From sequence record OZ346201.1: DNA of 64,000 bases; one strand, 5' to 3'. Made by a program: the position numbers and the translations under genes. The number at the start of each line of letters is the position of its first letter. The first letter of the stretch is position 1. This DNA is from a phage. Positions 42,174-61,109 of the stretch are shown piece by piece. The notes below the pieces were generated by a model that did no database searches, was not told where the DNA came from, and saw only the letters and a list, made by a program, of their open reading frames with translations.

Positions 42174-42590
42174 ATGACATTAGAAGATATCATTGTTAAA
42201 CCTGAGAACTATGACCAATACAACCTGTCAACTCAATCTGTAGACCTTGGATGCGCCACGGTCAGTGCGTGGCCGGTTAACGGAAAAGAGCTAGATAAAT
42301 GCTTAGAAGCTCACATGTCTATTAACAAGTTTCTGGATGAAAATACTCACTGGCTTGAGGGTGCAGGAGTATATGCTTCATGGTTGGAGAGTATGGGATT
42401 CGACTACCAATCTGAAGAAGGGTGGTGGAGCTATTTAGCTATCTGTCCAGAGACGCTACAATGCTTCATGAAATACTCTGAAGATTTAGAGTACCGGGCG
42501 GTGGTTGATAGTGCTATTGCCCGTTATAGCCGTAAACCTTTTTCCCACGACATTAAAACTGTGGAAGAGTTTGTTGAAGTTTTCTGTTGA
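42174..42590 (+). CDS. hypothetical protein
   Basis: 138-aa ORF, SD AAGGAGA. Confidence 0.55.
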   Translation: MTLEDIIVKPENYDQYNLSTQSVDLGCATVSAWPVNGKELDKCLEAHMSINKFLDENTHWLEGAGVYASWLESMGFDYQSEEGWWSYLAICPETLQCFMKYSEDLEYRAVVDSAIARYSRKPFSHDIKTVEEFVEVFC

Positions 42591-42686
42591 CACAGGTTGA
42601 AAGGTGTGCAATTATAACTTCATATGACTGGAGGACGTGATGAACGAAGAAAACTGGGATGTATAACTAACAGGAGGCCACTGCCC

Positions 42687-42884
42687 ATGATTTATCGAAT
42701 CCGTGTAAGAGAAGATGCACCAGGCTGTTACTTTGACTGGCGTGGGTGGTGGTTTCTCCACCCAATGGATGGACTCACAGATAGAATGCTGGATGCTGCC
42801 CTTTATACAGATACCGACATAGAGTATAATCTCTATCTGAAGGACGGTATAGATAACGGCCTGTTTGAAGCAATTCCTGTGTAA
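42687..42884 (+). CDS. hypothetical small protein
   Basis: ATG 42687 with CAGGAGG upstream preferred over track start 42624. Confidence 0.5.
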   Translation: MIYRIRVREDAPGCYFDWRGWWFLHPMDGLTDRMLDAALYTDTDIEYNLYLKDGIDNGLFEAIPV

Positions 42885-42952
42885 GAGACTGTGATAGCTA
42901 TGTTTTATGATCTTCCTGTAGCGCCACCACCTGTTGAACCCGGAGAACTAAG

Positions 42953-43378
42953 ATGATCTATGAAATGCCAAAACTGATTCGTGACGATGCCCAAAACGCT
43001 CACACCATTATTATGGGCAAACGCATGGATATTATTTGTCATAAAGATTTCTGGGAAGGAAGTTACTTCACAGAGTATTTTGGTAAACTGGATAATGGTC
43101 TGCTGATCCAGTTCTACACCGATGCGGAAAACAACATTCCCTGGGAGTTCGAAACTGAAGATATTCATAAACTTTTCACCTTCCTCGATATTAAGGTTAA
43201 GGCCAAGTTTGAAGAGGGTGAGTGCGACGATTGTGGATTTTATGAGGTAACAGATTTCTATCTTCCAAGTGGTAAGAACCTTTACTATGAAAGCCACTTC
43301 GGTAACTCAAATATGCCACAGTGCTGGACTGAGTTTTTTGAAATTGTGGAAGAGGAGCTGGCATATCGTGATTATTGA
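42953..43378 (+). CDS. hypothetical protein
   Basis: 141-aa ORF, SD GGAGAA. Confidence 0.55.
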   Translation: MIYEMPKLIRDDAQNAHTIIMGKRMDIICHKDFWEGSYFTEYFGKLDNGLLIQFYTDAENNIPWEFETEDIHKLFTFLDIKVKAKFEEGECDDCGFYEVTDFYLPSGKNLYYESHFGNSNMPQCWTEFFEIVEEELAYRDY

Positions 43379-43826
43379 TACTGTAGAGGGAGATTTAATC
43401 TCCCTTTTTAAGAGCGGTGCTGGTCACCTGATCCACGGTTGTAACTGCTTCCACACAATGGGTAAGGGTGTAGCAAAACAGATTGCCCGTGAGTTCCCTC
43501 AAGCATTGGAAGCTGATAAAATGACTATGCACGGTTGCCTAAGTAAACTGGGCGCGTTCTCCCGCTGGGAGCACTTATCTCCGAGAGGTATTGTCTACGG
43601 AATAAATCTGTATACTCAGTTCTACCCAGGGCCTAATGCTGAATATTTCTCAATACTGAAAGGCTTTGAGCGAGTCAATGAAGTATTTGAGGGGTCGATT
43701 TTACCATTCTACATCCCTAAGATCGGGTGCGGCATAGGTGGTTTGAAGTGGGAACATGTAGAGGACATTATTAACCTTGCCACTTTTGATATAGATATTA
43801 TCGTGGTGGAGTACAAAGAGTGTTGA
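43368..43826 (+). CDS. macro-domain protein (ADP-ribose binding / hydrolase candidate)
   Basis: ..IHGCNCFHTMGKGVAKQIAREFP.. matches the macro-domain nucleotide-binding motif (N-x-V-N..G-x-MGKG-[LV]-A..FP); GTG start at 43368 with GAGGAG upstream. Confidence 0.6.
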   Translation: MIIDTVEGDLISLFKSGAGHLIHGCNCFHTMGKGVAKQIAREFPQALEADKMTMHGCLSKLGAFSRWEHLSPRGIVYGINLYTQFYPGPNAEYFSILKGFERVNEVFEGSILPFYIPKIGCGIGGLKWEHVEDIINLATFDIDIIVVEYKEC

Positions 43827-43851
43827 CAGCTATATTTTAAGATGGTATAGT
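43823..43851 (+). promoter_or_regulatory. sigma70-type promoter
   Basis: TTGACA-N17-TATAGT; stop codon of the macro gene lies inside the -35. Confidence 0.65.
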
Positions 43852-43880
43852 CGCCACAACGATTAAGACAGAGGAGCACT

Positions 43881-44075
43881 ATGGAGACTAAAATCTTAAT
43901 TCTAGCTGTGATAGATACAACAGAAGGAGCCATGTTTGAATCTGCAGGAGGGTATTTCTACCTGCCCTATGGAAAAAGAACTTCCGAGCCGAGTAAAGAT
44001 TCAATCCTTAAAGTGTTCCCGTGTGCTTTCTGGCTGGAGATCTTGGTAGAAGATTGCAGAGGACTAGGGAGATAA
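43881..44075 (+). CDS. hypothetical small protein
   Basis: 64 aa, SD AGAGGAG. Confidence 0.5.
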   Translation: METKILILAVIDTTEGAMFESAGGYFYLPYGKRTSEPSKDSILKVFPCAFWLEILVEDCRGLGR

Positions 44076-44077
44076 TT

Positions 44078-44272
44078 ATGAGAAACAAGAAAGAGCTTTA
44101 CTCTGGTGAGTGGATAAACGATCAACAGGTAGGAGAGGTAACCTGCTTCCGGTGCTTTACTAGGTACAATCTTAAAACTGCACCAAAAAGTGTTCCAAAG
44201 ACTGACGGTTATTACATAAAAGAACCTCATTGCCCAAAATGCAAATGCCGATTATACTGGAGTAACCTGTAA
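44078..44272 (+). CDS. small zinc-ribbon protein
   Basis: CFRC ... CPKCKC pairs; ATG 44078 preferred to track start 44021. Confidence 0.5.
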   Translation: MRNKKELYSGEWINDQQVGEVTCFRCFTRYNLKTAPKSVPKTDGYYIKEPHCPKCKCRLYWSNL

Positions 44273-44276
44273 AAGA

Positions 44277-44304
44277 TTGACATCTGAAAACTGCGGTGTA
44301 TAAT
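44277..44304 (+). promoter_or_regulatory. sigma70-type promoter, consensus hexamers
   Basis: TTGACA-N16-TATAAT. Confidence 0.75.
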
Positions 44305-57007: not shown

Positions 57008-57427
57008 ATGAACATTAAATCTAATAATCCGGCATATAGCTTTGATAACGCTTTTTGTCACGGTCCGGCGGCGAAAGGATTCGAAATCGATGGTAAACTA
57101 ATTATTGTCAATGTTGACGGGGAAGAGGTTGCAGTATATCCGGTGGCAGACGTAAAAAGCCGTTTACAATGCCGCATGGATGTTACCGCCTATCAGCTTG
57201 ATCCGGTCCGCATAGTTGCCCTGGTCCTGGAAGAAGAAATTAAAGCCATGCACCATAGCAACAGATTTATTGGTGACGCGCAGGATAATATGAAAGTATG
57301 CCGCCATAAAGTTAATGAAGTGCTTAAAGAGTACGGCTATAAAGATCTTATGATCAAACGTGAGGAAAAATTCCGCTACCGTAACGACCTGGCAAATCGG
57401 ATTTTTGAAATATACGAATCATTATAA
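57008..57427 (+). CDS. hypothetical protein
   Basis: 139 aa, SD AAGAGG; last rightward gene before the 2.4-kb non-coding region. Confidence 0.55.
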   Translation: MNIKSNNPAYSFDNAFCHGPAAKGFEIDGKLIIVNVDGEEVAVYPVADVKSRLQCRMDVTAYQLDPVRIVALVLEEEIKAMHHSNRFIGDAQDNMKVCRHKVNEVLKEYGYKDLMIKREEKFRYRNDLANRIFEIYESL

Positions 57428-57479: not shown

Positions 57480-59880
57480 TCCCCCTACCATAAACGGCCC
57501 TACCTGGCAAGTGGAATAATTGACGAGCCATCAATCCCACACACTGTACAAATATACATGTAAAATAACTATTGCATAACCTTTCATTGTGTGGTAGCGG
57601 TGCTATTTTTTACCTGTTTTCCTTCCAAAATTGCACGTAATGCAGCTATTGCACAAAATTTAACCTGATGCACATCTCCAATATCCTGTCAACAACTAAA
57701 AATCTTTATAAGTCATACACTTACACAGCATCGAAAGCGTGTTCTACGCGAAAAATCGAGTATAACTATAGCCGCCAGATCTCAGAATTCACGTACGCAC
57801 GCCATTCTATAGCCTGCAAAGTATTTATTCCAACCACAGAATAACGGAATAGTCAATACCTGAATAAAATAATTATTCGTTTAAACTGCATAACATAAAT
57901 CAGCTCAGGTGTCAACATTTTTCGTAAACAGTCTGAAATTGTCACTGTGAGTTATCATAAACAGAGAAATCTTTAGTCGTATAATGTTTACTGTACGTTA
58001 CTATACTGACTGGAATCATTAGATGACTAATAGAAAGATAAGAAATAATTAACAATACAATTATTTTACCTGTAACAATAAGACAACTATGCAAACGAAT
58101 GGCATGGCGCGACGGAGTCGCGACATAATATAAAAGCAGTAACCATCACCCCCGTGATGGTTTGTCTGCAATCTATTAATCAGATCATAGTTGCCTTGTA
58201 TTCAGTTAATCATGACATAATAAGCAAGGCAACTATAGATCTGCTAATAGTTGCCCTGCTTTTATATTATGTCATATATTATTAACTTGTTAATTGTTAA
58301 CTTGCTAATTGTTTTCATGCAAACGAATGTCATGGCTTATCCTATCTGTGTAAACAGTTAAGGTGTAAACTATCCAGGCGTAAACAGTCTATGCGGGAAC
58401 AATCTATACGTGAACAGTGAAACATGAAATAATAACAGTCGTTATTGTGTCGAAAGTGTATAAGGTGTCAGACAAGTTTTTCTCCTCTTTGTCAAGTGCT
58501 GCATGAAAAATTTACAAGCTTGTATGGTAGCATTTTTGCGGCCCTGTTTACATTCAGCGATGTATGTATAATCCTTGTTGTGTGGGCGTTTAGACGTCTA
58601 GACGGTCAGAAGTCTGCAGGTTAATACCTAATCTATCGGCTGCTAACTATATCCCACACAAATAGTAAGAAATATAATTGTTATGTGCGTAAACAGTAAC
58701 TCATGTTATCAATCCCTGTATGTATCGCCAGTGGTGCGCATAATGGGTATTATGTTAAATTGCCCGTAATGATAACTATTCTCACAATGATAGGTATTCT
58801 CATTCACTCCCACAAGATAGGTTGCAAATGTTGTGCCACTGTGTGAACGGCCTAACCTATTAATTTGCCTCACTGCCTCGATATTTGAGAATTGTTATAA
58901 GAATGAGAAGTATTCCCATTTCGTCCGCCTGGCAGCACTCCAGTCGCTACCGCTCATGACAGGGCAGAACTAGACCCTCTTCAGATATTTCTGGCTGACT
59001 CTTCAGGTCTGTGTGGGAAAAGCCAACCTCTCCGGCGGCGGGGAGGGGGTCAATTAAAAAAAATTACGTGGTGCATGAAGCGCTCTTCAGGTAAGGCATG
59101 TGTTATGGGATGAAACCCTCTTCAGGCAATGATATTTGTGGGTGTGATATTTGCTGGAAAGCCAGATATGACGGGACTCCTGGCGGGGCAGGGGTAGTAC
59201 AGACAGGGAAAATATGGGGGATGTAGTTGGGGAAATTGATCAGACAGGTAGAGTATGGAATATGTTACAAGTATGTTAAATAGGGAGGATGAATATCTGC
59301 AGGATTTGTGTGTAAAATCAAAGACTTAAGTGGTGTTGTGGTATTTTCTATAAATAATTCAAGTTTAATAGGTAATATTTGTCTCTATCCACTTTGTGTG
59401 GTAAACAGATTCAGATGAAATTGGTTTACAAGTGTATACATAATATACAAATTAAAGATACAAGAAACCCCCCTCCCCCTTCGGCTACCATTCACCTTTT
59501 CCTCTGACTGGTACTTAAACACTTATTCAGACTCTTCAGGTTATCACCCATATATCATATGGCAGTGACTGGTGTCCTCCGGCCCCTCTTTCGTCACCCG
59601 TCCGCTTCGCCATGCTAATGCCATAGCCAATGGTTCGGTTGTTCACTCTGTTCACTCAGGTGTATCTCCATACCCCTTCAAACCGAAGAGACAAAATCCT
59701 AATTACTCGGTAAAAGAAAAGAGAAGAACTTAATTTTATCAGGATAGGCAAGAATGTCAAGGCATGACTGCTCACTAAACAAGCAAACAGTCATGTGTGG
59801 AAGGTAAGTGATTGTGGTGGTGGGAAATTTAGTTGAAAGATGTGTTATAGGTGCGCTTCCAGCACTTTGGCCGGGCAGCT
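57480..59880. other. 2.4-kb ORF-free, repeat-rich region between convergent gene blocks (candidate origin / packaging / control region)
   Basis: No ORF of 60 aa or more on either strand; six CTCTTCAG(G) copies (58.97-60.18 kb); about nine GTAAACAG-like copies (57.9-59.4 kb); inverted TAGTTGCC and GACATAATA motifs at 58.1-58.3 kb. Confidence 0.6.
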
Positions 59881-59889
59881 AATTGTGTG

Positions 59890-60105
59890 TCAGTCCAGCG
59901 GTTCATCCTCTACTTCACTGAAATCAATGTTCATGGTCTCCTCCCAACCATCGATCTCAGCACAAGAGTGGAGTTCTTTAGGGTTTACTCCCAAAGCCTC
60001 AGCAACAGAGTCTATATTTAACACCTCTGGCAGGTATGATTCATCGAATTCAAGGTAAATCAGGCCACGAGTGTTGTCAGCTCCACCAAATATCTCTATC
60101 TTCAT
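59890..60105 (-). CDS. hypothetical acidic small protein
   Basis: 71 aa, SD GAGGAG upstream on minus strand. Confidence 0.5.
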   Translation of the reverse strand: MKIEIFGGADNTRGLIYLEFDESYLPEVLNIDSVAEALGVNPKELHSCAEIDGWEETMNIDFSEVEDEPLD

Positions 60106-60224
60106 GAAATCTCCTCTGGAAATGAGAGTGTGAACAGGGTTTTATACGTTCTAATGCACAGGAATTATACACGTTTGCCTCTTCAGGCCATGCTTTAGCA
60201 TGAGGAACTTGTGGGCTCGGTGCT

Positions 60225-60437
60225 TCATAGTCTACCACCTCTGAACTCTTCGTGCTCAGGCATAATAGAGAACCAGATATCTACGATGTCCTCCCACGTC
60301 AGGTCATCAGCCTCAGGATCTGTCTGGGACGAAGATGAAGAGTCCTCAGAATCTAAGTTTTCCTCTTTAACTGGCTCATCCAAGGGACATATGGTCACTC
60401 CTTCGGATGTCTCTTCAGATGCATGTGTGTTGATCAT
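60225..60437 (-). CDS. highly acidic small protein
   Basis: 70 aa, Asp/Glu/Ser-rich. Confidence 0.45.
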   Translation of the reverse strand: MINTHASEETSEGVTICPLDEPVKEENLDSEDSSSSSQTDPEADDLTWEDIVDIWFSIMPEHEEFRGGRL

Positions 60438-60797: not shown

Positions 60798-61109
60798 CTA
60801 TACCCATGAGGGCTTATCAAGGTTGGAGTAGCTGAAAGGTGTCAAAAGGTGACTGTCAAAATCCCTCAAACTATCCAAATCTTTTTCCTCGTCCTGACAC
60901 CATCTGTGCCTACATTTATTGTTGTAGTGCATAGAATGCATAGCGTTCTGCAACTTAACAGGTACAAGTGATTCAGGAGTAGATAGTATTGTTGGGTATG
61001 CCAGAATCACCTCAAACAGTGGAAACACATCGAAACTAAAGTCTATCTCTGCAGAGGTTGATGGCATATAGGAGTATTTAGCCGCCTTTGTAGACATAAT
61101 CCACCTCAC
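60798..61109 (-). CDS. hypothetical protein
   Basis: 103-aa ORF. Confidence 0.5.
   Translation of the reverse strand: MRWIMSTKAAKYSYMPSTSAEIDFSFDVFPLFEVILAYPTILSTPESLVPVKLQNAMHSMHYNNKCRHRWCQDEEKDLDSLRDFDSHLLTPFSYSNLDKPSWV

Follow-up and report, generated by a model that had tools for sequence, protein, structure and literature searches.

DarT2 ADP-ribosylates thymidine in single-stranded DNA and blocks replication. In a HIDEN-SEQ screen of phage T4 on a DarTG2 host, tk.4 was the single match, a clean tk.4 knockout was DarTG2-sensitive and the gene was renamed adfM for anti-DarT factor macrodomain; the evidence in that work is genetic and the removal of ADP-ribose from DNA is its proposal (bioRxiv 10.1101/2025.11.20.689424). 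The T4 gene is dispensable on K-12. T2 and T4 do not need the NADAR factor AdfN for their resistance to DarTG2; AdfN acts on guanine adducts only, and NADAR is the fold with which DarG1 and AdfN hydrolyse guanine-ADPr on DNA. A second phage protein called AdfM, gp104 of PhiKZ, takes DarT2-installed ADP-ribose off DNA in vitro, protects the phage and is imported into the phage nucleus (PMC13309987). The antitoxin DarG (Thermus aquaticus, PDB 5M31/5M3E; Mycobacterium tuberculosis, 5M3I) combines its macrodomain with a C-terminal DarT-binding domain and has darT as its neighbour; its K80A variant is inactive. SCO6735 of Streptomyces coelicolor (PDB 5E3B), an orphan protein resembling DarG, carries a glutamine, Q85, at the position of DarG K80 and human TARG1 K84, hydrolyses thymidine-ADPr on DNA and neutralises DarT; Q85A, Q85E and N27S variants lose dT-ADPr-DNA hydrolysis completely or nearly so, and in the proposed mechanism the glutamine, held by Asn27, positions the distal ribose while a backbone-bound water serves as the proton donor (PMC9411070). 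A survey of viral NAD/ADPr systems found macrodomains in 41% of myoviruses.

The locus described here lies in a 64-kb window (64,000 nucleotides of record OZ346201.1, the whole stretch of DNA that we analysed) from a Vequintavirus, an rV5-like E. coli myovirus with a genome of about 136 kb. It contains a macrodomain gene that is real and intact (Table 1). The 1.4 kb around the gene are 94–96% identical to ECP32, ECP26, NHEP1, FFH2 and other phages, with matches in 119 phage records. Translation from the GTG at 43368 gives a protein of 152 amino acids with the N-terminus MIIDTVEGDL, and the reading frame closes with the TGA at 43824–43826. The GTG start and the GAGGAG ribosome-binding site are invariant in three other Vequintaviruses (ECP32, rV5_ev147 and nimi), whose records annotate the same 459-nt coding sequence for the macrodomain gene, and the family N-terminus MIxxxVxGDL is kept out to T4 and T2 Tk.4. 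A longer in-frame reading frame from a GTG at 43269 was ruled out as the gene because it is at 43368 that ribosome-binding site, start codon and family N-terminus show conservation.

Table 1. Position of the macrodomain gene, its active-site segments and the adjacent features in the window.
Feature	Position	Strand	Details
Candidate promoter	42587..42615	+	TTGACA, 17 nt, AATTAT; 10/12 consensus with TG extension
Upstream ORF	42953..43378	+	141 aa, acidic (pI 4.4), PHROG 8157, function unknown
Shine-Dalgarno GAGGAG	43352..43357	+	10 nt 5' of the GTG start; read from sequence
Macrodomain gene, T4 tk.4/adfM orthologue	43368..43826	+	152 aa plus stop; ORF and translation
Loop 1 of the ADP-ribose pocket (predicted)	43431..43499	+	residues 22-44, IHGCNCFHTMGKGVAKQIAREFP; invariant H23, G24, N26, M31, G34, A36
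NLYTQ motif	43605..43619	+	residues 80-84; Q84 at the catalytic-Lys position
Loop 2, Gly-rich, diphosphate-binding (predicted)	43713..43742	+	residues 116-125, IPKIGCGIGG; invariant P117, I119, G120, G122
Sigma-70-type promoter (predicted), next transcription unit	43823..43851	+	TTGACA, 17 nt, TATAGT, TG extension; 11/12 consensus

Sequence relationships place the gene in the family of T4 Tk.4, which is very large in phages. The protein matches PHROG 335, labelled 'phosphatase', at E=1e-60, is 70% identical to RB49 Tk.4 over the full length and aligns end to end with T2 Tk.4 at 41% identity (E=7e-43), with identical statistics for the T4 record in tblastn. T4 Tk.4/AdfM and its T-even and Krischvirus orthologues fall in the same PHROG, have the same length and share the same invariant H, N, N and Q. 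Tk.4 of T4 and the window gene are also alike in being stand-alone genes of a presumed early region. T4 belongs to another phage subfamily, however, where tk.4 adjoins vs and tk, whereas the window gene is coupled to the acidic 141-aa ORF, and the DarTG2 phenotype within the family is that of T4 only. Relatives were found by tblastn in 2,810 of 50,697 phage records (ca. 5%), and an exhaustive profile search returned 1,262 clusters at 50% identity with E<1e-30 and 11,236 with E<1e-10, so that few accessory genes of large myoviruses are as widespread as this family. The copy in the original rV5 record is labelled 'Tk.4 conserved hypothetical protein' and those of sister phages 'macro domain protein', 'phosphatase' or 'Macro domain, Poa1p_like family'. 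Databases and literature thus already contain the gene, its macro fold and a probable anti-DarT role, this probable function having been published in 2025–2026, and the anti-DarT idea is not new because the GenBank records of sister phages already say macro domain protein or Tk.4. We consider the finding correct and ordinary, with nothing new in kind apart from the glutamine-site detail, which we flag for specialists.

The window protein is predicted to consist of one macrodomain, which stands alone and belongs to the ALC1/TARG1-like class. A macro-domain protein at this position had been proposed in a preliminary description of the window, and profile search, structure prediction and structure comparison all agree with it. 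The Pfam Macro profile (PF01661) is matched over its entire length (1–118 of 118) with 32 bits against a cut-off of 22 and E=1.3e-7. An AlphaFold2 model built with 44 family members reaches a pLDDT of 96.5 and a pTM of 0.91 and contains the three-layer alpha/beta/alpha macro fold. Foldseek searches of the PDB with this model returned TARG1, Poa1p and DarG macrodomains as top matches, with TM-scores up to 0.78–0.85, together with BT1257, and the family profile finds TARG1, Poa1p, DarG and SCO6735 among PDB sequences at E=1e-15 to 1e-18. In both structure and sequence the protein is nearer to TARG1, DarG and Poa1p than to the MacroD, PARG, viral and macroH2A classes, and the class assignment follows from the order of these fold matches. 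That the protein has a macro fold and processes ADP-ribose is, as a prediction, close to certain. Poa1p, BT1257 and TARG1 are equally distant from it, so that the substrate is not readable from homology alone.

The predicted ADP-ribose pocket contains a glutamine in place of the catalytic lysine of related macrodomains. The segment that had been quoted as the ADP-ribose-binding loop corresponds to loop 1, and the Gly-rich loop 2 is likewise present in the confidently modelled fold. All residues found invariant among 46 aligned relatives are intact in the window protein, namely H23, G24, N26, M31, G34, A36, N80, Q84, P117, I119, G120 and G122. The loop-1 asparagine N26 and the Gly-rich stretches G32-x-G34 and G120-x-G122-x-G124-G125 are therefore in place, most of these positions being family-invariant. 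Q84 is paired with the catalytic lysines of DarG (K80), TARG1 (K84) and PhiKZ AdfM (K78) in HMMER alignments to 5m3i and 4j5r and in a MAFFT alignment with gp104; the lysine contexts so aligned are FPTKKHW in M. tuberculosis DarG and ITKK in TARG1. All 245 aligned family representatives have glutamine here and none has lysine, and glutamine also occupies the position in all 81 sequences of a set made up of 80 bacterial genomic copies and the window protein. N26 aligns with N23 of PhiKZ AdfM, which has been equated with DarG N22 (PMC13309987). The counterparts of loop 2 are PRIGCGLDRL in TARG1 and PPLGVGNGGL in DarG, and in this alignment G124 falls at the position of TARG1 D125. The catalytic lysine of TARG1 and DarG and Asp125 of TARG1 are consequently both absent, being replaced by Q84 and G124, and the tryptophan of the DarG motif FPTKxxW (W83) is missing from the Tk.4 family.

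This substitution of glutamine for lysine is a known sub-type of the ALC1-like class, represented by SCO6735. H23, N26, K33 and Q84 of the window protein correspond to H24, N27, K34 and Q85 of SCO6735 with a constant offset of one, in agreement with the HMMER coordinates for 5E3B; the equivalence is transitive, combining the numbering, these coordinates and the published equation of Q85 with DarG K80 and TARG1 K84. We infer that the window protein fits a glutamine-dependent pattern of the SCO6735 type in which the glutamine would be buttressed by the loop-1 asparagine, with a histidine preceding that asparagine by two to three residues. The two proteins are also alike in being ALC1-like and stand-alone with no adjacent DarT. 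SCO6735 differs in being a bacterial chromosomal gene product expressed from a RecA-NDp promoter, shares only about 23% identity, carries a central loop with five additional residues (the HMMER coordinates give an excess of about five residues) and possesses an electropositive DNA channel as well as K89, where the window protein, which is mildly acidic (pI 5.6), has G88. An N-x-x-x-Q motif is likewise present in BT1257 of Bacteroides thetaiotaomicron (PDB 2FG1/2AFC), an uncharacterised structural-genomics protein with HICND in place of the HGCNC found here. The Tk.4-type active-site pattern H-G-C-N-C ... N-x-Y-T-Q may be of the SCO6735/BT1257 type. An invariant lysine-to-glutamine site in common with SCO6735 may be an underappreciated detail of the family, and through it the family is well suited to testing the lysine-independent mechanism proposed for SCO6735.

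The missing canonical lysine is also what favors a non-catalytic binder, which would work stoichiometrically by inhibiting DarT directly or by soaking up ADP-ribose-containing immune signals, the His-ADPR of type II Thoeris being one example. In vitro, DarT is still inhibited by the catalytically dead Q85A variant of SCO6735 (PMC9411070), ThsA macrodomains are sensors of His-ADPR and one fused relative of the window protein barely matches the ThsA_Macro model (26.5 bits). We nevertheless regard a mere binder as very unlikely because the SCO6735-like catalytic pattern is strictly conserved.

Similarity to TARG1 raises the question of whether the protein might instead erase mono-ADP-ribosylation from protein (Glu/Asp-linked) or RNA, laid down by ADP-ribosyltransferase defences of the host. 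In favor of this, TARG1 ranks with the best structural matches, Glu/Asp-ester specificity is the general rule in the ALC1-like class and SCO6735, which shares the glutamine-type site, also de-MARylates PARP1 E988Q (PMC9411070). However, the residues that TARG1 itself uses for catalysis, K84 and D125, are those absent from the window protein, and Tk.4 is not known to counter any defence aimed at protein or RNA; according to one report, T-even phages with tk.4 are still blocked by the mRNA ADP-ribosyltransferase CmdTAC (PMC11618068). As a replacement for DNA repair such an activity is quite improbable, and it could coexist with DNA repair instead.

Removal of ADP-ribose from DNA is supported by the matches of the protein in curated prokaryotic libraries, where DarG is its sole match. 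The scores are 51.8 bits for the PADLOC model (positions 4–141 of 329) and 47 bits for NCBIfam NF048014 (positions 3–143 of 338), the latter against an equivalog cut-off of 250 bits; T2 Tk.4 scores lower against the same DarG models, with 36 bits in PADLOC and 30 bits in NCBIfam. The region covered is the macrodomain portion, and the C-terminal DarT-binding domain and the darT neighbour of DarG are both absent here. PhiKZ gp104, which like the window protein is a phage-encoded stand-alone macrodomain, falls in contrast in the DarG clade: it scores 138 bits against the DarG model, keeps K78 and the FPTKxxW motif and matches DarG structures only. Since gp104 is a lysine-containing member of the DarG clade whose local identity to the window protein is only 24%, the two phage proteins called AdfM are different lineages of one class.

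The best-supported function of the gene is the reversal of DarT modification, because deletion of the T4 orthologue tk.4 gives DarTG2 sensitivity. Reversal of DarT-type DNA ADP-ribosylation had been put forward in the preliminary description, and Tk.4 orthology, the DarG-only matches and the SCO6735 pattern all argue for it; the other ideas raised there, interference with NAD-derived signals and with signalling by ADP-ribose derivatives, as by messengers of the Thoeris type, gained no support. In the mechanism we propose, host-type promoters would drive expression early in infection and the protein would bind the ADP-ribose that host DarT2 has put on thymidines of single-stranded phage DNA. 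The macrodomain would then hydrolyse the bond between base and ribose, ADP-ribose would be released, the DNA would become replicable again and the phage would escape the abortive defence exerted by DarTG2, the protein being in effect an orphan antitoxin. Catalysis would most likely take the lysine-independent route of SCO6735, with Q84, held by N26, positioning the distal ribose, a water activated beside the H23-G24 backbone doing the chemistry and the Gly-rich loops 32–34 and 120–125 holding the diphosphate. By analogy with T4 Tk.4 and SCO6735, we infer that the Vequintavirus protein would have the same target and use the same chemistry. Taken as a whole chain, the reading that the window protein strips ADP-ribose off phage DNA and so defeats DarTG2 is in our judgment rather probable. 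Weighing against it are the modest similarity to DarG, the absence of that protein's catalytic lysine and FPTKxxW tryptophan, the equal distances from Poa1p, BT1257 and TARG1, the housekeeping contexts of bacterial members and the mildly acidic character of the protein. The literature we searched contains no report of a Vequintavirus against DarTG2, including the HIDEN-SEQ library of Bas54 (Vequintavirinae). Should this reading be right, rV5-like phages come already equipped against DarTG2. They are widely considered as agents for therapy and for controlling E. coli O157; since DarTG2 is present in pathogenic E. coli, the gene would bear on host-range prediction.

Members of the Tk.4 family outside phage genomes and in fused form give further indications of function. 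In some metagenomic proteins the Tk.4-type macrodomain is joined to NADAR and DUF4326 domains, and these NADAR fusions fit a shared role in DNA de-ADP-ribosylation that would clear both thymine and guanine ADP-ribose adducts. Among the ORFs of the window no NADAR (AdfN-like) gene was found by phmmer with two NADAR domains and DUF4326, a search of low sensitivity that covered 64 of about 136 kb. At 80 bacterial loci no DarT or other ADP-ribosyltransferase was found beside the homologues in the form of a toxin-like cluster, and the recurrent neighbours, recognised by reading example sequences, are what we take to be lineage-specific housekeeping genes. An origin as an orphan antitoxin by way of DarT-adjacent bacterial homologues was set aside on this result. 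The occurrence of bacterial members in housekeeping contexts with no DarT neighbour suggests that antitoxin duty is not all that the family does.

These bacterial contexts are also one of the observations that favor an enzyme acting on small ADP-ribose derivatives and not in DNA repair, that is, an ADP-ribose-1''-phosphate phosphatase like yeast Poa1p or an O-acetyl-ADP-ribose deacetylase. The 'phosphatase' label mirrors a likeness to Poa1p (IHSCNC there, IHGCNC here), and H23 is common to both proteins (deposited Poa1p mutants affect H23, S30 and F152). The soluble derivatives cleared by an enzyme of this kind could be toxic compounds made by RES-type or TIR/sirtuin defences, or RNA repair could yield them as by-products. 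The label is purely homology-derived, however, the sole known phenotype in the family is the loss of DarTG2 resistance and the NADAR fusions point toward DNA adducts. Poa1p, an ADPr-1''-phosphate phosphatase, has a longer chain and is without the N..Q motif; at the position of Q84 it presumably has serine instead of glutamine, and N80 presumably has no counterpart in it, which counts against a Poa1p-like activity. We therefore consider a small-molecule substrate unlikely and retain the removal of ADP-ribose from phage DNA as the preferred reading.

A wider reading of the family, which we put forward tentatively and rate at somewhat below an even chance, is that Tk.4-type proteins form a distinct lysine-less, glutamine-dependent ALC1-like lineage, that anti-DarT2 macrodomains were recruited independently at least twice by phages and that the substrates of the glutamine type are perhaps broader. 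One recruitment may be represented by the lysine-type, DarG-derived AdfM of chimalliviruses and another by the glutamine-type Tk.4/AdfM of T-even, rV5-like and many other myoviruses. Activities of the glutamine type beyond those of DarG may comprise hydrolysis of protein Glu/Asp-ADPr or of other base adducts, or direct inhibition of DarT. A broader or different substrate range could also explain the retention of stand-alone copies at housekeeping loci in bacteria.

The macrodomain gene overlaps its upstream neighbour, as had been noted in the preliminary description; the overlap measures 11 nt (43368–43378). The upstream ORF adjoins the macrodomain gene in Vequintaviruses, and its Krischvirus homologues (40% identity) lie at positions well away from the tk.4 map region of RB49, the positions not being compared within one record. 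No Pfam or PADLOC match was obtained for this ORF, even at E<=10, and no likeness to DarG or to defence or anti-defence proteins was seen. A 'split DarG', in which the acidic upstream ORF would take the part of a DarT-binding, DNA-mimicking C-terminal domain, was rejected as unsupported given the lack of PADLOC and Pfam matches and the separation of the Krischvirus homologues from tk.4. Profile searches and the Krischvirus positions gave no evidence of a functional pairing between the upstream ORF and the macrodomain gene. The neighbouring ORFs of the macrodomain gene are small phage ORFs without Pfam or PADLOC matches.

Promoter-like sequences flank the gene on both sides. A scan revealed no terminator-like site between the promoter-like site at 42587–42615 and position 43826, and this combination suggests a three-gene unit (42687–42884, 42953–43378 and 43368–43826) that would be driven from that site. 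At its other end the macrodomain gene runs, again as previously described, into the next promoter, which is predicted to be a strong one; the TGA is part of its -35 hexamer TTGACA (43823–43828), and TATAGT ends at 43851. A comparison of four phages shows both hexamers of this promoter to be conserved and the spacer to be variable. The description of the surroundings as a small-gene region likewise stands, with many small genes on the + strand, and a consensus scan counted 24 sigma-70-like sites in 6.5 kb of this stretch against 12.3 +/- 3.9 expected. Judged from this promoter and gene content, the label 'early' for this stretch is plausible.

The macro gene (43368-43826, + strand) is translationally coupled to the acidic ORF that precedes it, for which searches of Pfam and PADLOC returned no match. 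Homologues of this acidic ORF at 40% identity are found in Krischvirus phages (RB49, JSE), where they lie far from the map position of RB49 tk.4, the Krischvirus orthologue of the macro gene, as judged from positions that do not come from a single record. Sixteen GenBank records titled 'Campylobacter phage' (host C. jejuni) match this E. coli Vequintavirus sequence at 42900-44300 of the window, and one of them, A13b, shares 95.7% amino-acid identity with the acidic ORF among the matches listed. A C. jejuni host label is strange for rV5-like genomes.

Downstream of the macro gene, the second of two small ORFs was called mechanically and probably begins at ATG 44078, immediately 3' of the 64-aa ORF. 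This reading of the sequence is based on the overlap between the two ORFs, on the partial coverage of the mechanical ORF by PHROG 4864 (residues 20-82 only) and Pfam Phage_zn_bind_2 (residues 39-81 only), and on the 195-nt CDS annotated at this position in the ECP32 and nimi records. The promoter that follows is among several strong host-type promoters in the 42.5-47 kb region, an arrangement of sequence elements that fits an early region.

Features surrounding the macro gene and in the ORF-poor stretch of the window
Feature	Coordinates	Description
Acidic ORF	42953-43378	141 aa, pI 4.4, PHROG 8157
64-aa ORF	43881-44075	precedes the mechanical ORF
Mechanical ORF	44021-44272	overlaps the small ORF before it
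Sigma-70 consensus promoter	44277-44304	perfect, 12/12 (TTGACA, 16 nt, TATAAT); between small + strand genes
Inverted repeat	58122-58139 / 58256-58273	perfect, 18 nt; inside the 57500-60400 stretch

Bacterial relatives of the HG[CA]NC type at about 40% identity are encoded in 352 stretches of a species-representative genome set, among them stretches from Desulfobacter, Ruegeria, Verrucomicrobiota and Bacteroidota. They are stand-alone genes with lineage-specific neighbors (80 loci examined, L007-L086). Read from example sequences rather than by database search, these neighbors look like housekeeping genes, and no adjoining DarT-like gene was seen among them. In some uncultured relatives (P0140, P0196 and P0206), a Tk.4-type macrodomain is joined to NADAR and/or DUF4326 in one polypeptide, a fusion that could act as a joint eraser of thymine and guanine ADP-ribose. 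The AlphaFold2 model of the macro-gene protein matches the BFVD entry A0A481YV05 (Marseillevirus LCMAC103, 302 aa) with a TM-score of 0.93 and 39% identity. This giant-virus Tk.4-like macrodomain is labelled 'SNF2 subfamily protein', recalling the SNF2-plus-macro architecture of ALC1.

The window also contains a stretch of about 3 kb (57500-60400) without any ORF longer than 80 aa. It marks a strand switch, with + strand genes ending at 57427 and - strand genes beginning at 60798. The GC content falls to 0.35 at 57.5-58.5 kb, and several further direct and inverted repeats accompany the 18-nt inverted repeat. A transposon screen of the Vequintavirinae phage Bas54 recorded no insertions across about 2 kb of intergenic sequence flanked by divergent genes (HIDEN-SEQ preprint, bioRxiv 10.1101/2025.11.20.689424). 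The ORF-poor stretch probably corresponds to that locus, and it may represent an origin or regulatory region.
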